NCBI GenBank assembly: GCA_003130875.1
Contig: QEXY01000143.1
Location: forward strand, 18,338 to 82,337
Origin: Ardenticatenia bacterium
Lineage (GTDB): Bacteria; Chloroflexota; Anaerolineae; 4572-78; NAK82
Reading direction: 5' to 3'
DNA: 64,000 nucleotides
Numbering within the stretch: position 1 is the stretch's first letter; each line of letters opens with the position of its first letter. Below, in pieces: positions 21,768 to 62,228 of the stretch. The notes below the pieces were generated by a model. The model did not search any database. It saw only the letters and a list, made by a program, of their open reading frames with translations, and was not told the DNA's origin. A program made the translations under genes and the position numbers.

Positions 21768-21857
21768 GAGGGTGTTGAAAAAGTCCCTTGACCGCTCAGA
21801 TTTTCATAGGAAAATGGGCCAATAAAGCGGGTAACTAAAGAGTTTTTCAACACCCTC
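21768..21857. repeat. MITE-like element, copy 1 (~88 bp, terminal inverted repeats AGGGTGTTGAAAAA)
   Basis: Near-identical to 34828-34915 and, in reverse orientation, to 54280-54365. Flanked by CCTTTTG on both sides. Intergenic, between divergent genes. Confidence 0.8.
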
Positions 21858-30466: not shown

Positions 30467-32236
30467 ATGCATTCCATATATCACGGCTGTCGCATAGGTT
30501 CTCGACCGTGGTCGTGGCTGGGCCTGTTTATCCTCCTGGCCTCTATGGTATCGCCTTGCCTGGCCCAATGGGAAGAGGGCATATCACAATCGATGCGGGT
30601 GGTTGTGGTGCTGCGGCCCCCTTTCCCTTTGGAGCGTGCCGACATCGCCGCACAGGCAGAGGTGGTGGCCCAGGCGCAAGATATGGTGTTGGCCAGCATC
30701 CCCAGCGCTGATTTTCAGCCGCTCCATCGCTATTCGGTTGTGCCAGGTCTAGCCGGTACGGTGACCCCGCAGGGCTGGCAAGCGCTGCTCAGCAACCCAT
30801 TGGTGCAAGCCGTCGCATTTGATCTCCCGGTACAAGCGACATTAGGTGAAAGTGTCTCCGTGATCCGTGCCGATCGTGTTTGGAATGAGTTTAGGTTCAC
30901 TGGTGCTGGCGTCAACGTCGCCGTGCTCGACAGCGGATATGATCCCAACCATCCGGATCTCAATGACAGCATCGTGGCACAGCATTGCTTTAACCATAGC
31001 ACCTGCCCACCGACGAACACCAACGAGGGCGACAGCGCCAAAGACGAGAATGGACACGGCACGCATGTCACTGGCATTATCACTGGGCGCGGGATCGTCG
31101 CGCCGCGTGGCATCGCACCGGATGCCAGTATCGTGGCCGTTCGTGTGCTCAACAGTGCCGGTAGCGGTTGGACTTCGGATGTAGTGGCAGGTATCGACTG
31201 GGTAGTCGCCAATCAGGCACGTCTGAATGTGCGCATTATGAATCTCAGCCTGGGGGGAGGGGCCTATTCTGGCATATGCGACGCGGCGGATGCCAATAGC
31301 ATGCTATATGCCTCTGCAGTACAGGCAGCACAACGTGCGGGTATCATTGTATTTGCAGCGGCAGGTAACGGTGCCATGCTCGATAAGATGATGACACCGG
31401 CATGTATTTCCAGTGTGATAGCCGTCGGTAGTACCTATGACGCCAACTTGGGAGCATATACATGGGGTGGCGCAAACCCTATTTGCACCGATTCCAGCAC
31501 GGTAGTGGATCAGATTGCTTGCACGAGCAACAGCAGCTCCGCTTTGGACCTATTGGCACCAGGAGCGGTGATCACCTCGGCCGGGCTAGGAGGCGGGGTG
31601 AGCAGCCGTTCTGGGACTTCCATGGCTACACCGCACGCTTCTGCTGTGGCTGCTTTATTGCTGCAGGCACAGCCAGGGCTTTCAGCCGGGCAAATCGAGA
31701 GCATTCTCAAGGAAACGGGTGTGCCCATCACCGACTGGAGGAATGGCCGTGTCACGCCGCGCGTGGATGCCTACGCGGCGGTACAGCGGGTCACAGGCGG
31801 AGCGGGACCTGGAACGCCTATCGGTGGCACCGTGCTCTTGCAGAGTCGGAACACACACGATGGCATCGCGATCTACGTAAGTGGCCAACCATGCACTGCA
31901 TCTCTTTCAGGGGATCAAGTCACCACCACTGATGCCTCTGGCCGCTTTCAACTGCCGCCGGGACAGGCTGCCCAATGTCTGTGGGCAGTGCGGCCTGGAT
32001 TCTTGAGCGCACAAAGGACAGCACCATCCGGTTCGCTCGGCACGATAACGCTGCTTGCTGGAGACGTGAACCGTGATAACCTGATCAACATCTTCGATAT
32101 CGCTGCCGTGGCCGGGAATTACGGAGGCAACACCCCCCTGGTCGATTTCAATGGAGACCAGATGGTCGATATTTTCGATCTGGTCATTGCAGCGGTTAAC
32201 TACGGGAAACGCGGCCCACTGACCGACTGGCATTAA
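30467..32236 (+). CDS. subtilisin-family (S8) serine protease with C-terminal dockerin
   Basis: Asp (VAVLDSGYD), His (HGTHVTG) and Ser (GTSMATPH) triad motifs. The start abuts the stop of the preceding cohesin gene. Confidence 0.88.
   Translation: MHSIYHGCRIGSRPWSWLGLFILLASMVSPCLAQWEEGISQSMRVVVVLRPPFPLERADIAAQAEVVAQAQDMVLASIPSADFQPLHRYSVVPGLAGTVTPQGWQALLSNPLVQAVAFDLPVQATLGESVSVIRADRVWNEFRFTGAGVNVAVLDSGYDPNHPDLNDSIVAQHCFNHSTCPPTNTNEGDSAKDENGHGTHVTGIITGRGIVAPRGIAPDASIVAVRVLNSAGSGWTSDVVAGIDWVVANQARLNVRIMNLSLGGGAYSGICDAADANSMLYASAVQAAQRAGIIVFAAAGNGAMLDKMMTPACISSVIAVGSTYDANLGAYTWGGANPICTDSSTVVDQIACTSNSSSALDLLAPGAVITSAGLGGGVSSRSGTSMATPHASAVAALLLQAQPGLSAGQIESILKETGVPITDWRNGRVTPRVDAYAAVQRVTGGAGPGTPIGGTVLLQSRNTHDGIAIYVSGQPCTASLSGDQVTTTDASGRFQLPPGQAAQCLWAVRPGFLSAQRTAPSGSLGTITLLAGDVNRDNLINIFDIAAVAGNYGGNTPLVDFNGDQMVDIFDLVIAAVNYGKRGPLTDWH
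32060..32209 (+). other. dockerin module (two EF-hand-like segments) of the S8 protease
   Basis: GDVNRDNLINIFDIAAVAGNYG...VDFNGDQMVDIFDLVIAAVNYG, the duplicated D-x-N/D-x-D...D calcium-loop plus helix pattern of type I dockerins. Confidence 0.75.
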
Positions 32237-32390
32237 AACAGGTCGCCAGCAATCACCTCTGGAGGTGACTCGCTCGGTATCCTGGTGTGGGAATCGCTGA
32301 TGCACGCATTTCTGCCCGTTTCGGATGCCCCCTGTGCCCCTTGGAATCCCCTTTCCGGTCCGAGATCCGACGAGGCTTCGAATACCCCTT

Positions 32391-32419
32391 TTGACTCACA
32401 TCTACGGGCATCCTATAAT
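32391..32419 (+). promoter_or_regulatory. near-consensus sigma70-type promoter (TTGACT-17-TATAAT) for the rpiB-deoC operon
   Basis: TTGACT at 32391-32396 and TATAAT at 32414-32419, 65 nt upstream of the rpiB ATG. Confidence 0.55.
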
Positions 32420-32483
32420 CCGTCCTAGGTTCGCGTCACTTTGATCCAGCGTCAGTTTCTCGCGCGCTTGAGGCACTTGCACG

Positions 32484-32561
32484 ATGAAACCTCGTGAAAC
32501 AGAGATTAGAGAATTAGTGCGCCACGTGCTCCATCGCGTGCTGCGCGAGACCCAGCGCGGT
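32484..32561 (+). other. putative BMC encapsulation-peptide-like helix on RpiB
   Basis: [26 protein letters not shown] has an amphipathic i/i+3/i+4 hydrophobic pattern resembling Pdu/Eut N-terminal targeting helices. Confidence 0.5.
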
Positions 32562-33191
32562 GAACATAGGCTGCTGACCAGCCAAGAGATCGAGCAATTG
32601 GAACCGGGGAGCAAAATCCAGATCGAACCAGGCACCATCGTCACCCCTATGGCACGCGAAATTGCGTTAGCGCGCAAAATTCTGATCGAGGAGATCTCTG
32701 CTAAAAGCGGTCAAGCGACTCCTGCACCTGCGACAGGCAAGGTGGTGGCTTTGGGGGCCGATCACGGAGGCTATGAGCTCAAAGAGCTGTTGAAACCTTT
32801 TCTCATCGAGCTGGGCTATGAAGTGTTGGACGTCGGCACGCACAGCAAGGAAGCGGTGGATTATCCTGACTTTGCTTATGCGGTCGCCCGGCATGTGGCC
32901 AGCGGAGCTGCCTTTCGTGGCATCATCATCGATGGTGCAGGTATTGGCTCGTGTATGGTTGCCAACAAGGTGCCAGGGATACGGGCAGCAATGTGCTATG
33001 ACCAGATGTCTGCTGTTAACAGCCGTGCGCACAACGATGCAAATGTGCTCACTCTGGGTGCCGGTTTGTTGGGCCCCAATCTGGCAAAGCAGATTGTCAA
33101 GACCTGGTTGAGCACCAATTTCGAGGGAGGTCGTCATCAACCGCGTATTGACAAGATGATGGCTATCGAGGCACGATATCTCAAGAGATAA
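32484..33191 (+). CDS. rpiB: ribose-5-phosphate isomerase B (RpiB/LacAB family) with ~90-aa N-terminal extension
   Basis: The core [14 protein letters not shown]...[15 protein letters not shown]...[12 protein letters not shown] is canonical RpiB. The N-terminus carries an amphipathic helix [18 protein letters not shown] plus a second conserved-looking segment. Confidence 0.88.
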
Positions 33192-33211
33192 GAAGAGGGA
33201 TCCTAGAGGGT

Positions 33212-34123
33212 ATGGTGTCGACATCAAGAAGTAATATGCAACTAGATTCCAAGACAATTGATTCATTGGTTGAAGAGATAACCAGACAGGTACTGACGGT
33301 TTTGAAGGAGCAGAGCAGTCGGTCAGATGTCTTTCAGCAAGCAACGGACACCATGTCCTCTTGCAGTCGATGCGAGGAGAGAGGTGCGCAACACCTGCCT
33401 AAGACGATTCGAGATGACACAGGGCGCCCAGGTGTCCTATCGGATGCACGAATAACGGCCCAGGAACTCGCCCGCTATATCGACCACACGTTGCTCAAGC
33501 CGGACGCTACTTACGCTCAAATTTCTCAGCTGTGCGAGGAAGCGCGCCAGTACGGTTTTGTCACGGTGTGCGTCAACCCTGTCCATGTGCGATTGTGTGC
33601 CCAGCTACTGCGCGGGTCGGGGGTCGGGATCTGTTCTGTGGTAGGATTTCCACTTGGGGCAACACCCACCAATGTCAAGTGTTATGAGACACAACAGGCG
33701 ATCAGCGATGGCGCCACTGAGATCGATATGGTGATCAACATCGGTGCACTCAAAAGCAAAGATTACGACTCGGTCAGAGAAGATATCGCGGCTGTGGTAC
33801 GTACCTGTCATAACCATGGGGCCATTTGCAAGGTGATTATCGAAGCGGCATTGTTGACCGATGATGAAAAGATCAAGGCGTGTCAGCTGGCTAAGGAAGC
33901 GGGCGCCGACTACGTCAAAACATCCACCGGGTTTGGACCTGGTGGCGCAACCTTGCATGACGTGATGCTGATGCGCCAGGCGGTGGGACCGGACATGGGG
34001 ATCAAAGCGGCCGGTGGGATCAGAACCTACCAGGATACCGTGGCGATGATCAAAGCCGGTGCCACCCGCATCGGCGCTAGCGCCAGCCTCAAAATTATGG
34101 AAGGCGCGCGTTCAGCATCCTGA
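33212..34123 (+). CDS. deoC: deoxyribose-phosphate aldolase with ~85-aa N-terminal extension
   Basis: Core [12 protein letters not shown]...VCV...[11 protein letters not shown]...DYVKTSTGF (Schiff-base Lys)...GIKAAGGIR. The N-terminal extension contains [19 protein letters not shown]. Confidence 0.88.
33236..33313 (+). other. putative BMC encapsulation-peptide-like helix on DeoC
   Basis: [26 protein letters not shown] is an amphipathic helix, followed by a low-complexity linker before the aldolase core. Confidence 0.5.
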
Positions 34124-34143
34124 GGCGGTAAAGGGGGCGGCCT

Positions 34144-34824
34144 GTGAGCCGCATTGCGTCCTATATTGATCACACTTTGGTACGCGCCGATGCCACACCC
34201 GAGCAAATCGCTCGTCTGTGCCGAGAGGCATGCGAGCATCGCTTTGCTGCTGTGGCGGTCAACGAAGTCCATGTCCATCTCGCTGGTCGTCTGCTCCGCG
34301 GCACAGGGATCTCCGTGGCGTGTGCTATAGGTTTTCCTCTAGGTGGGACGAGCACCTGGGTGAAGTGGTACGAGGCACGCAGCGCACTGCGCGGGGGCGC
34401 CAATGAGCTGGATGTGATGATCTACTTGGGCGCTCTCAAGGATGGTCGCTATGACTTGGTAGAGCATGACCTGAGCGCTATCGTGCGGCTCTGCCGCGAT
34501 TATGGTGCGCGGTGCAAGGCCATCTTGGAATGTGCTCTGCTGACCGAGGACGAAAAAGTGCGCGCGTGTCAGCTGGCAGTTGCCGCGGGGGTGGACTTCG
34601 TAAAAACGTCAACAGGCTATGGCCCGAGCGGCGCAACAGTGCACGATGTGACCCTGCTACGTCGTTTGGCTCCACCTACTGTAGGTGTCAAGGCAGCGGG
34701 TGGCATTCGCACTTATGCGGATGCAATCGCCATGATAGAAGCCGGTGCAACACGTCTCGGAGTCAGTGCCCAAGCCAGTCTGCAAATTTTGAGCGAAGAG
34801 CGCTTGCTCTTGGAAAACCCATAG
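34144..34824 (+). CDS. deoC: deoxyribose-phosphate aldolase (second paralog, no extension)
   Basis: GTG start after the RBS AAAGGGGG. YIDHTLVRADAT...ANELDVMIYLG...DFVKTSTGY...GVKAAGGIR. Confidence 0.85.
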   Translation: MSRIASYIDHTLVRADATPEQIARLCREACEHRFAAVAVNEVHVHLAGRLLRGTGISVACAIGFPLGGTSTWVKWYEARSALRGGANELDVMIYLGALKDGRYDLVEHDLSAIVRLCRDYGARCKAILECALLTEDEKVRACQLAVAAGVDFVKTSTGYGPSGATVHDVTLLRRLAPPTVGVKAAGGIRTYADAIAMIEAGATRLGVSAQASLQILSEERLLLENP

Positions 34825-34827
34825 CAG

Positions 34828-34915
34828 AGGGTGTTGAAAAAGTCCCTTGACCGCTCAGATTTTCATAGGAAAATGGGCCAATAAAGCGGGTAACTAAAGA
34901 GTTTTTCAACACTCT
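34828..34915. repeat. MITE-like element, copy 2, with 8-bp target-site duplication CATAGCAG
   Basis: TIRs AGGGTGTTGAAAAA / TTTTTCAACACTCT. CATAGCAG is present at 34820-34827 and 34916-34923. The left duplicate contains the deoC2 stop codon. Confidence 0.85.
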
Positions 34916-34950
34916 CATAGCAGTGGATGTGAAACGGATGAGGTTTTGCG

Positions 34951-35226
34951 ATGTACATCGGACGCGTGCGGGGAAGTGTGATGAGTACAATTAAATTGGA
35001 GATCTATGAAGGGTGTCGTTTGCTCGTGATCGATCAGCTGGATTTAGACGGCAATCCGACCGGCGAGTACGATATCTGCGTCGATGTCGCCCAGGCTGGT
35101 CCGGGCGATATTGTATTCGTGATCGACGAGGGCAATTCGGGGCGTCAGATCCTCGGTCGTGAGCCGGACGGCGCGGTGCGAGCTGTGCTGGCCGGCGTTG
35201 TGGATGAGATCGAATGGCACGCATAA
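34951..35226 (+). CDS. bacterial microcompartment vertex (pentamer) protein, EutN/CcmL/PduN family
   Basis: 91 aa. The pattern MYIGRVRGSVMSTIK...GCRLLVIDQLDLDGNPTG...VDVAQAGPGDIVFV...AVLAGVVDEIE aligns motif-for-motif with EutN (G.V..T.K...KLL.V..D..G.P.G...A.D..GAG.G..V...GIVD). Confidence 0.85.
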   Translation: MYIGRVRGSVMSTIKLEIYEGCRLLVIDQLDLDGNPTGEYDICVDVAQAGPGDIVFVIDEGNSGRQILGREPDGAVRAVLAGVVDEIEWHA

Positions 35227-35260
35227 CCGCGCTAATGTTTGACGTGAGAGGTGATGGGAA

Positions 35261-40573
<5,313 letters not shown>

Positions 40574-54149: not shown

Positions 54150-54279
54150 AGGTAAATTCCCGCAGGGCTTTTCACTCCTATAATAGTATTTCCTCGACTG
54201 GGTGAAGGGGCAGACCCAACCCCCGATCCGGACGCGCCGCCAGCATACGCCGACCATCCGGAATGAAGCGAAACCCTTG

Positions 54280-54365
54280 AGAGTGTTGAAAACCTTTAGT
54301 TACCCACTTTATTGGCCCATTTTCCTATGAAAATCTGAGCGGTCAAGGGATTTTTTCAACACTCT
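54280..54365. repeat. MITE-like element, copy 3 (inverted orientation)
   Basis: AGAGTGTTGAAAAC...TTTTTTCAACACTCT is the reverse complement of copies 1 and 2 with a few substitutions and one indel. No clear target duplication. Confidence 0.8.
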
Positions 54366-54376
54366 CACTTTTCTTA

Positions 54377-55280: not shown

Positions 55281-55520
55281 CGTTGCAGAGATACAGAGGC
55301 GTTAGCTCAGTCGAGTAAGAGGCGAAGAGGGGGATGCCCGCGCCTGCCTGCCAATTCCCGACGAGCATCCCCACATTACACCGGATCCACGCTGTGGCCT
55401 TGAGATCAAGTGCCTGCAGCGCTGCCGGTTTGTTGCACATCATACCAAACATGAAGGCATATCGCAAGTTATCCGGACCATATGCACGTCACATTCACAA
55501 CACCAATGGGAGCATTTCCA

Positions 55521-56312
55521 ATGTCAGGAAAGGCGATCCGCCTCAGTAGACTTTTTCCCGAGGGGGCCAATACCGTCATTGTCGCGATGGATCACGGTCA
55601 AACATTCGGGCCCATGCCCGGCTTGGTGGATTTCACCGCCGCTGCAGAATCTCTCAGAGAAGCAGATGCCGTGCTGATGGCCCCCCAGATGATCCGTTTC
55701 GCCGGCAAGCTTTTCGATGGCAAGAGCAGTCCAGCGATCATCGCCCGGCTGAATTGGAACACCATCCATTGCGAGCCATGGCATTATCGAGAGGCATATA
55801 TCGTCCAGGCGATGTCCGTCGAAGCAGCTGTCGCCGCCGGAGCTGACTTGGTGTTGGCCAGCCTGGTGCTCAAGACAGACAGCGAAGAACACGACGCCCG
55901 CAATGTCCAGGTGTTCGCAGAGATCGCAGAGCAAAGCTATCGGCTGGGTGTGCCACTGGTTGGGGAGATATTCCCCGCCGGCGACCTGCGTGCCAGTTCG
56001 GAAGAGTTTCACGATTATATCAAGAAAGCGTGCCGCATTGCGTGCGAGCTGGGCGCGGATGCCATCAAAACTTTTTACACTGGTGAGCGCTTTGCCGAGG
56101 TTGTAGAAGGAGTGCCCATACCCATCTTCGCACTGGGCGCGGAGAAACTCGCCTCAGAGCTCGATGCGCTCACACTGGCACATAAAGCGGTCCGTGCGGG
56201 TGCTCGCGGGGTAGTGTTTGGGCGTAACGTCTTGCAGGCGGCGAACCCAGCCCAATTTCTGCGTCGATTGAAGAACGTGGTGCAGCGCCATATGGCGCCG
56301 GAGGTGGCGTAG
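55521..56312 (+). CDS. class I aldolase, DhnA/FbaB/LsrF-like
   Basis: VIVAMDHG...GADAIKTFYTG (Schiff-base Lys)...GVVFGRNV. Start chosen at MSGKAIRL. Confidence 0.78.
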   Translation: MSGKAIRLSRLFPEGANTVIVAMDHGQTFGPMPGLVDFTAAAESLREADAVLMAPQMIRFAGKLFDGKSSPAIIARLNWNTIHCEPWHYREAYIVQAMSVEAAVAAGADLVLASLVLKTDSEEHDARNVQVFAEIAEQSYRLGVPLVGEIFPAGDLRASSEEFHDYIKKACRIACELGADAIKTFYTGERFAEVVEGVPIPIFALGAEKLASELDALTLAHKAVRAGARGVVFGRNVLQAANPAQFLRRLKNVVQRHMAPEVA

Positions 56313-60412: not shown

Positions 60413-61354
60413 ATGTCGGCCAGCAAGTCTATATCCCTGGAACGTTCCGCTGCAACCGGCAAGCGCCGGTTCACACTCACCAATACCCAGTTCTCCATAA
60501 TATTATTGTTGCCAGCGTTGCTAACCCTGGCGTTCACCGTCCTCTATCCCCTTCTGCGGGGCATCTATCTGAGCTTTCATTCCTACAGCTTGGTCGATCT
60601 TGTTTCTGGCATCCAATGGGTGGGGCTTGAGAATTTCAAAACTCTGTTGAGCAGCTCGGCATATCGCTCTGTCTGGGGTACCACGCTCATATTCGTCGCC
60701 GGCTCGGTGGGTGGTCAATTTGTCGTTGGCTTCTTGACAGCGCTGGTGCTCAATCAGGACCTGGCACAGCGTAACCTGTTCCGTGGATTGCTCTTGATGC
60801 CCTGGATCGTACCCACCGTTGTGGCCGCCCTGTTGTGGAAATGGATTTTCAACCAGCAATACGGCATCTTCAACTACGTGCTTCACTCCTTGGGTCTCAT
60901 CTCTTCCTTCAAGGCATGGATCGGTGATCCATCGCTGGCACTTTTCTCGGTGACGCTCGCCAACATCTGGAAGGGGTTCCCGTTCCATATGATCGTGCTG
61001 CTGGCTGCACTGCAGACCATCCCGCCGGACATCATTGAGGCAGCGATCATCGACGGCACTACAGCGGTGCAACGTTTCCGCTACGTCGTATTGCCCTACC
61101 TGCGGTATATCATCATGATCGACTTGCTCATCTCCATCATTTGGACCTTCCAGAGCTTCACCACCATCTGGACGATGACAGAAGGTGGACCGGTTACAGC
61201 GACCACCACACTGGCCATCAGCATTTACCGAACAGCATTTCAGGCGTTCGACATCGGTATGGGGGCTGCTATCGGCACCTTGTGGCTGGTGGCCATGTTA
61301 GTTTTCAGCGCGGTGTTCGTGCGATTGTTCGGTGGTACTCGATTGGAAGTGTAG
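60413..61354 (+). CDS. sugar ABC transporter permease (MalF-like)
   Basis: Six hydrophobic segments; EAA-loop region EAAIIDGTTAVQRFRYVVLP. Confidence 0.88.
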   Translation: MSASKSISLERSAATGKRRFTLTNTQFSIILLLPALLTLAFTVLYPLLRGIYLSFHSYSLVDLVSGIQWVGLENFKTLLSSSAYRSVWGTTLIFVAGSVGGQFVVGFLTALVLNQDLAQRNLFRGLLLMPWIVPTVVAALLWKWIFNQQYGIFNYVLHSLGLISSFKAWIGDPSLALFSVTLANIWKGFPFHMIVLLAALQTIPPDIIEAAIIDGTTAVQRFRYVVLPYLRYIIMIDLLISIIWTFQSFTTIWTMTEGGPVTATTTLAISIYRTAFQAFDIGMGAAIGTLWLVAMLVFSAVFVRLFGGTRLEV

Positions 61355-61367
61355 GAGATCGGACGCG

Positions 61368-62228
61368 ATGTTATCCCTTACGCACCGCCGTCGGTTGGTC
61401 AAAGGTCTCTCCTATTTGTACATCCTTGTGCTGTTGGTGTTGGCCCTGTTCCCGATTGCATGGATGGTCTCATCCTCGATCAAGCCTATCGAAGACTTAT
61501 TCGTCATCCCGCCGCAGTGGATACCAGAACACCCGACGCTGAGCACGCTCAACTCGGTCATCTACGGCGATTACGGACGTGGCAGCCTCTTTCCCAGATA
61601 TTTTGCTAACAGCGTGATCGTCACGGTGGGCACCACGCTATTCTGCCTGGTGATCGCGACGCTGGCAGCTTATAGCTTCTCACGATACCCATTCCGCGGC
61701 AGCAACGGGCTGATGGTGGGCATCCTTTCCACGCAGATGTTCCCACAGGGTATGTTGCTGATCACGTTGTATTTGACCTTCTTGGCACTGAATTTATTGA
61801 ACACCTATCCGGCGCTGATACTGGCCAACACCACCTTCGCCATTCCGTTCGCGATTTGGATCCTCAAGGGCTTCTTCGACACTGTCCCACGAGAGATCGA
61901 GGATGCAGCCCTGATCGATGGTTGCGGTCGGCTGGGTGTCCTGACGCGTGTCGTGTTGCCTATGATCGCGCCCGGTCTGGTCGCTGCCGGAGTTTACACA
62001 TTTTTGATCGCCTGGGATGAGTACCTCTTTGCTGCCACTCTGACAATCAAGCCAGAAATGCGCACGCTGCCACCGGGTATTATCCAATCCTTCGTGGGTC
62101 AGTTCTACTTGAACTGGCCCAACGTCATGGCCGCTTCCGTGTTAGTCACGATACCGGTGACCGTGTTGTTCATCTTCTTCCAGAAACATCTGGTGCAAGG
62201 CCTGACGGCCGGCGCCGTGAAGGGATGA
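61368..62228 (+). CDS. sugar ABC transporter permease (MalG-like)
   Basis: EAA loop EDAALIDGCGRLGVLTRVVLP. ATG chosen after the RBS GTAGGAG. Confidence 0.88.
   Translation: MLSLTHRRRLVKGLSYLYILVLLVLALFPIAWMVSSSIKPIEDLFVIPPQWIPEHPTLSTLNSVIYGDYGRGSLFPRYFANSVIVTVGTTLFCLVIATLAAYSFSRYPFRGSNGLMVGILSTQMFPQGMLLITLYLTFLALNLLNTYPALILANTTFAIPFAIWILKGFFDTVPREIEDAALIDGCGRLGVLTRVVLPMIAPGLVAAGVYTFLIAWDEYLFAATLTIKPEMRTLPPGIIQSFVGQFYLNWPNVMAASVLVTIPVTVLFIFFQKHLVQGLTAGAVKG

Follow-up and report, generated by a model that had tools for sequence, protein, structure and literature searches.

Two cargo-type enzymes and a single vertex protein of a bacterial microcompartment (BMC) are encoded side by side in this Ardenticatenia genome, and the question arises whether such a cluster belongs to a shell operon located elsewhere or stands for an arrangement of its own. 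The first-pass annotation of the window, by which we mean the whole stretch of 64,000 nucleotides that was analysed, had offered both answers: a satellite of a distant shell operon, or a reduced or novel arrangement. Our analysis favours the first, because a main locus is catalogued under the same locus-tag prefix (DDG58). The second is unlikely, since split SPU3 systems are already catalogued. As the best explanation of the whole we propose, with a probability of about three in four, that the four genes form a satellite operon with a promoter of its own, belonging to a split SPU3-type BMC and including an RpiB-like core-shell tether.

The open reading frames described earlier between 32391 and 35226 are all present. 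They constitute a four-gene unit coding for an RpiB-like protein, DERA/DeoC 1, DeoC 2 and the EutN/CcmL pentamer protein, downstream of a single conserved promoter. This predicted sigma-70-type promoter (32391..32419, plus strand; TTGACT-17-TATAAT), already noticed as near-consensus ahead of the four genes, agrees with the consensus at 11 of 12 positions, a score to be read in the light of the poorly studied promoters of the host phylum. The hexamers CTTTTGACTC and CTATAATCC are the same in all four orthologous loci compared (the window, L010, L001, L007), which are diverged and vary in the surrounding sequence and in their upstream genes. The same four-gene set was found again, with partly different flanks, in L001, L002, L005, L007 and L010; the last of these was the top match (91% identical) of a GTDB scan with exact 8-mer peptides of the window RpiB. 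Across all four genes dN/dS ranges from 0.03 to 0.15 with dS being saturated, which indicates strong purifying selection. An Rfam search of positions 31500-36000 matched no RNA element.

DERA/DeoC 1 (33212..34123, plus strand) possesses an N-terminal extension of about 80 aa, where about 85 aa had been estimated, and the DeoC/TIGR00126 match (287 bits) begins at aa 85-89. The true start of the gene is probably the ATG at 33236 (MQLD...) and not position 33212. Within the extension an encapsulation peptide (EP) helix is located (33251-33313, plus strand; hydrophobic moment 0.54), which is followed by a CSRC..H segment, and the enzyme has the catalytic motifs EIDM, YVKTSTG and GIKAAGG. The core shows a dN/dS of 0.04; for the EP helix the value is about 0.12 where it could be estimated (against L007). 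DeoC1 groups with SPU3 DERAs, and its extension can be aligned to those of SPU3 and SPU6 DERAs. It also has the features by which sugar-phosphate-utilising (SPU) loci are recognised, namely a pfam01791 DERA with an N-terminal extension containing an amphipathic helix; the gene order typical of SPU3, pfam02502 before DERA, is seen in rpiB lying directly upstream of deoC with a gap of 20-44 nt.

The second aldolase gene (34144..34824, plus strand) encodes a DeoC protein that retains the catalytic motifs and, as had been noted before, has no extension, its TIGR00126 match covering aa 4-210 (243 bits). DeoC2 is untagged and presumably cytosolic. It is 57% identical to DeoC1 and branches in a separate deep clade outside all SPU-linked DERAs, which rules out a tandem duplication of deoC1 as its origin. 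The gene is kept at the same position in L001, L005, L007 and L010. Directly after its stop codon follows an unstranded MITE-like palindromic element of 90 bp (34827..34916) with 18-nt inverted ends and an apparent ATAGCA duplication at its flanks. Near-identical copies occur three times in the window (also at 21768-21857 and, on the minus strand, at 54279-54366), and L001 and L010 lack the element at the corresponding intergenic position, in line with the MITE insertion that had been proposed ahead of the pentamer gene. As RNA it would fold into a strong hairpin (z = -2.9).

The last gene (34951..35226, plus strand), listed at NCBI as 'hypothetical protein DDG58_11265', had been read as a EutN/CcmL-family vertex protein. 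Its 91-aa product indeed matches PF03319 (EutN_CcmL) over aa 1-85 with 66.4 bits, compared with a Pfam gathering score of 25. This vertex pentamer subunit (BMC-P) belongs to the SPU3 P3 orthogroup, sharing 58-60% identity with the BMC-P encoded last in SPU3 operons but only 29-34% with P1 and P2.

A tblastn search of the 64 kb with two complete SPU protein sets detected neither BMC-H or BMC-T nor aldehyde dehydrogenase genes, in agreement with the first reading; the acylating aldehyde dehydrogenase belonging to the definition of an SPU locus is accordingly missing from these 64 kb. No gene of the PF00936 type is found in the window either, and such a gene defines a main locus in the sense of Sutter et al. 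2021. The order rpiB-deoC-Tdp-H-P1-AldDH-Ts-P2-P3 was observed in 17 GTDB loci and five others, and the window retains rpiB and deoC from the beginning and P3 from the end of this canonical SPU3 operon. RpiB homologues with the same extension head complete SPU3 loci; complete loci are also present in unrelated Anaerolineae (L090, L091).

The window BMC-P and its neighbours carry the locus tags DDG58_11240 to _11345. In the phyloXML trees of the catalogue by Sutter et al. 2021, the entry 'Ardenticatenia Nak82, SPU3 (main)' comprises DDG58_14825, _14835 and _14845, which stand for a BMC-Tdp (212 aa), a BMC-P (96 aa, the length of P1) and a BMC-Ts. This main locus is about 710 locus tags away from the window cluster under the same prefix. 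We infer a BMC-H at DDG58_14830 and the acetaldehyde-consuming AldDH at _14840, because these numbers are skipped among the listed locus tags and because of what the catalogue defines as a main locus. Of the BMC-P triplet, the window holds the P3 type, and the catalogue entries listed add a main-locus BMC-P with the length of P1; no P2 is among them. According to the same catalogue SPU3 is 'sometimes split into two locations', and a BMC-P gene next to cargo enzymes, with a main locus catalogued under the same prefix, corresponds to its definition of a satellite locus. Because the same MAG has a catalogued SPU3 main locus, we regard the window cluster as the satellite of a split SPU3 system and not as a shell-less novelty; the two loci would then build one organelle. 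The assignment to SPU made at first reading is likewise sustained by the tagged DERA, the RpiB directly upstream, the P3-type BMC-P and the cataloguing of this MAG as SPU3. As the genome is a MAG, the contigs of the window and of DDG58_148xx could have been wrongly binned together. In searches with the SPU3 BMC-Tdp profile and the L011 aldehyde dehydrogenase protein, all matches listed (at least 120 each) belong to other lineages.

The catalogued locus might also be a full operon that contains rpiB, deoC and all three BMC-P genes, so that the window cluster would be an extra partial duplicate. It would then represent a second, separately controlled cargo and vertex set, such as a conditional variant whose DERA is cytosolic, and the conserved promoter of the cluster would suit such a role. 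However, the genes kept are exactly those flanking the shell block in canonical operons, and for this reason a fission fits better than a duplicate. Besides, only the 96-aa BMC-P of P1 length represents DDG58 among the entries listed in the P tree, and in the related genome JBMFPH01 the GTDB scan (exact 8-mer peptides) did not detect a further SPU RpiB. We consider a duplicate unlikely. Still more improbable, in our view, is a shell-less remnant, in which the tagged enzymes would form a shell-free condensate and the pentamer would be re-used or decaying. Such an origin would agree with the lack of BMC-H, BMC-T and AldDH genes within 29 kb on either side in the window, and likewise within 10 kb in L001, L007 and L010, as well as with three acidobacterial loci (L037, L040, L045) in which a tagged rpiB-deoC pair has no shell gene within 10 kb. 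Against it stand the Tdp, P and Ts shell genes catalogued in the same MAG and the BMC-P itself, which with 95-97% identity to its L010 and L001 orthologues and a dN/dS of about 0.03 is the most conserved of the four proteins. Moreover, we know of no function for a lone pentamer protein.

To the RpiB-like protein a role in linking core and shell may be ascribed. Its gene (32484..33191, plus strand) encodes 235 aa. Since the LacAB_rpiB match (PF02502, 183 bits) is confined to aa 88-225, the N-terminal extension measures 87 aa, close to the 90 aa estimated before. Extensions of this kind are found in more than 100 homologues (55-96% identity), and dN/dS of the protein is 0.04-0.13. The extension starts with an amphipathic helix of the encapsulation-peptide type (aa 5-25; 32496..32558, plus strand), which is predicted as a helix by AF2 (pLDDT 70-75) and whose pattern is kept in all homologues. 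Its hydrophobic moment of 0.52 equals the value of a Pdu signal sequence. With the corresponding helix of DeoC1 and the EP described on SPU RPI by Dwyer 2024 (PMC11585597), this speaks for the first-pass view that both N-terminal helices are encapsulation peptides. A flexible linker (aa 72-87; 32697..32744, plus strand), with pLDDT below 50 at aa 73-83 and the lowest conservation of all segments, connects the module discussed below to the core. The PGAP model of the window RpiB is cut to 180 aa and begins at Met56 (P0017), as would be expected if the extensions were annotation artefacts and the real proteins started at internal Met codons, but this is effectively refuted. More than 100 homologues retain the protein sequence encoded by the 55 codons upstream of Met56, for which dN/dS lies far below 1, a helix and a folded domain are predicted by AF2 in the RpiB extension, and automated annotation systematically misses the extensions of SPU enzymes (Dwyer 2024, PMC11585597).

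Aligned to E. coli RpiB, whose numbering is used here, the window protein has Asp in place of the catalytic Cys66 and Ala in place of Thr68; the Asp is invariant across 66 RpiB homologues. The protein scores 164.9 with TIGR01120 (cut-off 138.65) and passes this HMM, yet it does not have the catalytic residues Cys66 and Thr68. SPU compartments had been called experimentally uncharacterised, which is out of date, because Dwyer, Sutter & Kerfeld 2024 (PMC11585597) characterised SPU DERA and RPI including their extensions. In that study, the SPU6 RPI homologue showed little or no R5P isomerase activity; it has lost the catalytic Cys and binds DERA in an RPI-DERA complex. Judging from its substituted residues, the RpiB-like protein of the window is probably a non-isomerising scaffold or tether.

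The second part of the RpiB extension (aa 27-71; 32562..32696, plus strand) could not be assigned at first. With profile matches, hhalign and the AF2 fold it now looks like a folded mini-domain of the PduM-C/EutQ-N/EutT-N type, which is newly recognised here as a high-confidence prediction. The predicted fold is beta-alpha-beta-beta-alpha-beta, with pLDDT values of 80-88 within the full-length model and 94.8 when the module is modelled alone; Foldseek returned no solved structure with this fold. In Anaerolineales the module also occurs triplicated, in 405-aa forms. With 36.5 bits the triplicated form exceeds the gathering threshold (27) of Pfam PF15953, and it also matches the TIGR02536 C-terminus (3e-12), PduM (1.5e-9) and the EutT N-terminus (6e-6). 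The single copy in the window RpiB reaches 13.2 bits with PF15953 (PDU_like), which is under the threshold of 27 and restricted to profile positions 113-152. By these profiles, the window RpiB shares the module with PduM and is not a member of the PduM family (PF15953 / TIGR04493). A comparison by hhalign yielded a probability of 85% with aa 2-48 of E. coli EutQ and of 92% with aa 16-46 of EutT, the likeness to both being weak in sequence (12-14 bits by HMMER). On profile evidence the module is homologous to the C-termini of PduM and TIGR02536 proteins and to the N-termini of EutQ and EutT. Compared with L010 and L001 its dN/dS is 0.03-0.08, rising to 0.40 for L007, which is more distant. Among 60 longer representative matches, the fusion partners of the module are RpiB, class II aldolase, PTAC, the EutQ cupin domain and PduM-like proteins, and in other SPU types (L078, L088) the pair of helix and module is situated at the C-terminus of RpiB.

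For EutQ it has been demonstrated that aa 9-41 (helices H1/H2) bind the shell and that their loss parts the shell from the cargo (PMC12487888); the EutQ segment aligned to the module (aa 2-48) spans this region. The body of PduM connects the core to the shell (PMC12108088). Because the module aligns to a part of EutQ with experimentally demonstrated shell binding, RpiB is probably a core-shell tether, and by the same analogy it would bind the shell through its module. More tentatively, and with doubt slightly outweighing confidence, the module may be seen as a general shell-docking mini-domain of metabolosomes, shared by EutQ, EutT, PduM, TIGR02536 proteins, some PTAC and class II aldolases and SPU RpiB; together with its encapsulation helix, the catalytically dead RpiB would be the SPU counterpart of the EutQ and PduM tethers. 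If so, the triplication in Anaerolineales would adjust the number of shell contacts per tether.

In the proposed satellite operon, the locus would supply the tagged DERA with its RpiB-like partner without catalytic cysteine, an untagged DERA and one of three vertex pentamer paralogues (P3), and the other shell genes would come from the main locus elsewhere in the genome, where BMC-Tdp, P1 and BMC-Ts are catalogued. The N-terminal amphipathic helix of the RpiB-like protein would join the cargo core, its EutQ/PduM-type mini-domain would dock on the shell and its isomerase-fold body would bind DERA. The locus itself adds little, being another split SPU3 system in a MAG that is already part of a published catalogue. 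A lineage that conserves the fission of cargo, scaffold and one vertex paralogue under an own promoter is nevertheless a natural case for asking why metabolosomes have three pentamer paralogues and whether the cargo is under a regulation separate from that of the shell. In earlier descriptions the RpiB 'linker' was unstructured and PduM was without homologues outside Pdu; as far as can be told from sequence comparison, one folded mini-domain is common to both of them and to the end of EutQ that binds the shell. This offers a testable general mechanism for the linkage of cargo core and shell across BMC types, and the mini-domain suggests itself as a compact second targeting tag for engineering.

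Compared with known systems, the cluster resembles the SPU3 BMC (Sutter 2021; Dwyer 2024) in that an EP-tagged DERA adjoins an EP-tagged RpiB-type protein without the catalytic Cys, the BMC-P originates from the SPU3 triplet (P3) and the same MAG is catalogued as SPU3. It differs in lacking the Tdp-H-P1-AldDH-Ts-P2 block, in place of which an untagged, phylogenetically distinct DERA is encoded, and in having its own conserved promoter. With other satellite loci formed by fission, such as those of type I HO (two BMC-P and an aldolase) and SPU7 (DERA and two BMC-P), it has in common a pentamer gene and aldolase-type cargo away from the main locus, whereas here the RpiB-like scaffold has moved too and just one pentamer paralogue is encoded beside the enzymes. 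EutQ of the Salmonella and E. coli Eut systems (Yang et al. 2025) has an N-terminal segment of about 45 aa with the same profile and the motif ...ITxxDI...TPxAREvA..., which a flexible linker connects to a globular body with an enzyme fold. This body is a cupin acetate kinase and not an RpiB fold, and EutQ binds cargo EPs via H3/H4, whereas SPU RpiB carries an EP-type helix itself. PduM and the TIGR02536 'eut_hyp' flavoprotein-like proteins, finally, combine an N-terminal signal-sequence helix with the same mini-domain, which is C-terminal in their case; unlike the window RpiB, PduM contains no enzyme fold, and its middle region is different.

By inspection of open reading frames, four genes were found on one strand of the studied region. 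The first encodes an RpiB-family protein of 235 aa (32484-33191), whose isomerase domain is confined to aa 88-225 according to Pfam and NCBIfam. It is followed by a DERA/DeoC protein of 303 aa with a domain beginning at aa 85-89 (deoC1, 33212-34123), a second one without extension (deoC2, 34144-34824) and a 91-aa EutN/CcmL pentamer protein (34951-35226), scoring 66 bits against a Pfam cut-off of 25. This bears out the first-pass annotation of a tagged rpiB, a tagged deoC, a plain deoC and a lone EutN/CcmL gene, except that the true start of deoC1 is probably at 33236. The absence of shell genes noted there also holds, as no BMC-H, BMC-T or aldehyde dehydrogenase (AldDH) gene was detectable in the entire 64-kb window. 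A promoter-like consensus match, TTGACT-17-TATAAT, is located at 32391-32419. Both hexamers are invariant across four diverged orthologous loci despite differing flanks and thus form a phylogenetic footprint.

The 126-nt gap 5' of the pentamer gene contains a 90-bp element with 18-nt inverted ends and an ATAGCA repeat on either side, in agreement with the MITE proposed at first. Three near-identical copies of this palindromic element, each of about 90 bp, occur in the 64 kb (21768-21857, 34827-34916 and, on the minus strand, 54279-54366), with short flanking duplications at two of them (ATAGCA and CTTTT, respectively). It is missing from the corresponding site in two related loci (L001, L010). 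The element contains a promoter-like site (TTGACC-16-GAAAAT), and its RNA folds to a strong hairpin. A hybrid sensor kinase of 1770 aa (dCache/HAMP/PAS/GAF/HisKA/receiver; 35261-40573) is encoded 34 nt beyond the pentamer gene and may be co-transcribed with the four genes or be their regulator; its position is kept in the related loci L001, L002, L005 and L010, not in L007. Further downstream, at a distance of 20-27 kb, are genes for a DhnA-type class I fructose-bisphosphate aldolase (DDG58_11345, hypothetical in the annotation) and for sugar ABC transporter permeases (55482-56312 and 60413-62228), which may be connected with sugar-phosphate metabolism.

The RpiB and DeoC1 extensions are, by sequence comparison, real and no start-codon artefacts. 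That of RpiB is conserved from end to end in over 100 homologues (55-96% identity). Against three orthologous clusters, with synonymous sites saturated, dN/dS was 0.04-0.13 for rpiB, about 0.06-0.08 for deoC1, 0.05-0.15 for deoC2 and about 0.03-0.06 for the pentamer gene, and the constraint extends to the helices and to the module at RpiB aa 27-71. In public annotation, RpiB (PWH15465.1) is cut by PGAP to 180 aa with Met56 as start, and the pentamer protein (PWH15413.1) is named 'hypothetical protein' by PGAP and 'CcmK/EutM' by JGI. Missed extensions are exactly the problem described by Dwyer et al. 2024 (PMC11585597), and such errors would keep this satellite locus out of surveys that rely on keywords. 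In many SPU DERAs the helix of the extension is followed by a four-cysteine cluster, e.g. GCNCTDGSCxxHCADK or CKFxCAxGxCVxTCFD (examined in loci L003, L011, L020, L021, L023, L025, L037, L040 and L063), which suggests a metal site. DeoC1 of the window clade (33347-33395) retains only CSRC...H, and several Anaerolineales DERA extensions have lost the cluster wholly. It is not mentioned in the 2024 SPU paper (PMC11585597).

Homologues of the tagged RpiB lead complete BMC operons in Chloroflexota, Gemmatimonadota, Planctomycetota and other phyla, in the order rpiB-deoC-Tdp-H-P1-AldDH-Ts-P2-P3 (Tdp and Ts, BMC-T types; H, BMC-H; P1 to P3, BMC-P paralogues), which is the published SPU3 architecture (Sutter et al. 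2021). DeoC1 groups with SPU3 DERAs, and the pentamer protein falls into the P3 orthogroup, whose gene stands last in these operons (58-60% identity to P3, 29-34% to P1 and P2). The SPU assignment of the first-pass annotation is thereby strengthened, and the cluster most plausibly represents both ends of an SPU3 operon minus the shell/AldDH block, whose place is occupied by the phylogenetically distinct, untagged DeoC2. The same four genes are found in five related loci (L001, L002, L005, L007, L010) with partly different neighbourhoods. The operon is also split in other ways: in L022, L027 and L039 (Bellilinea and other Anaerolineae) the three BMC-P genes all follow rpiB-deoC and no hexamer gene is near, and in Acidobacteriota (L037, L040, L043, L045, L047, L065, L073) tagged rpiB-deoC pairs lack any shell gene within 10 kb. 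Several SPU3 main loci encode, between AldDH and BMC-Ts, a conserved protein of about 175 aa of no known kind and a receiver-domain/ParA (CbiA-type ATPase) fusion of about 375 aa (L003, 16016-17143; L011, 9983-11128; L090, 12101-13222; L091, 12064-13182), which resembles McdA-type organelle-positioning systems.

Two explanations had been offered for the missing shell genes, a reduced or novel arrangement and a satellite of a distant shell operon. The former has lost ground, as SPU3 is 'sometimes split into two locations' according to the catalogue (Sutter et al. 2021). The window proteins carry the NCBI locus tags DDG58_11240 to _11345 ('[Ardenticatenia bacterium]', exact protein match) and lie on a contig of 119,212 bp. 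In the shell-protein trees that supplement Sutter et al. 2021, three entries of 'Ardenticatenia Nak82' with the same prefix are typed 'SPU3 (main)': DDG58_14825, a CcmP-like BMC-Tdp of 212 aa, DDG58_14835, a BMC-P of 96 aa, and DDG58_14845, a PduT-like BMC-Ts. Their tag spacing is compatible with Tdp-[H]-P1-[AldDH]-Ts, H and AldDH being deduced from the gaps. Shared prefix, catalogued main genes and known splitting together make the window, with a probability of roughly three in four, a satellite of this SPU3 system, its main locus being known from the catalogue trees and correct MAG binning being assumed.

SPU enzymes are not experimentally uncharacterised, as had been stated at first: DERA with its extension of about 70 aa and RPI were studied by Dwyer et al. 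2024 (PMC11585597). RPI was described as bearing an encapsulation peptide and, after it, a 'less conserved, unstructured linker', with the catalytic cysteine lost and little or no isomerase activity; it forms a stable complex with DERA, and a packaging role was proposed (PMC11585597). The window RpiB shows the same replacements (Cys66 by Asp, Thr68 by Ala) and retains the remaining active-site residues.

Aa 27-71 are predicted to be a folded domain rather than a linker. In the AF2 model of full-length RpiB the module reaches pLDDT 80-88, disorder being confined to aa 73-83; by itself, with a 30-sequence alignment, it reaches 94.8 with a beta-alpha-beta-beta-alpha-beta fold, for which no match among solved structures was found. 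In 405-aa Anaerolineales forms it is triplicated, and this region matches the C-terminal third of the PduM profile PF15953 (36.5 bits, threshold 27), as well as the C-terminus of TIGR02536 (3e-12), PduM (1.5e-9), the EutT N-terminus (6e-6) and EutQ (0.003). Among 14 E. coli Eut proteins, the module profile found EutQ and EutT only, at their extreme N-termini (hhalign probability 85% to EutQ aa 2-48, 92% to EutT aa 16-46). It occurs in 606 clusters among 1.84 billion representative proteins; partner domains in 60 of the longer matches are RpiB, PduM-like, class II aldolase, PTAC and the EutQ cupin domain. In other SPU types, helix and module are paired at the RpiB C-terminus in L078 and L088, and at the C-terminus of TIGR02536-like proteins of about 250 aa adjoining a BMC-P gene in L081, L089, L055 and L059. 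There is a weak resemblance between the TPLARxxAxexxI helix (profile A6) and the peripheral-subunit-binding (E3-binding) domain of 2-oxoacid dehydrogenase E2 chains (PDB 3rnm_E; PF02817; two representative matches at E = 2e-5). It could reflect either distant homology or convergence towards a helix for protein docking.

Salmonella EutQ contacts the shell through residues 9-41 (H1/H2) and the cargo through H3/H4; when either region is deleted, shells and cargo come apart (PMC12487888). PduM starts with a signal sequence, while its body joins core and shell (PMC12108088). From homology and domain arrangement we infer a tether role in the organelle for the SPU RpiB-like protein: its N-terminal helix would enter the core, the mini-domain would dock on the shell and the catalytically dead isomerase body would hold DERA. 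The locus itself is unremarkable, a satellite locus of a BMC type already known and in part characterised, and its genome is already in the catalogue. The new content is modest and consists of a conserved fission architecture and of the RpiB 'linker' as a putative mini-domain of the EutQ/EutT/PduM type, to which its similarity in sequence is weak.
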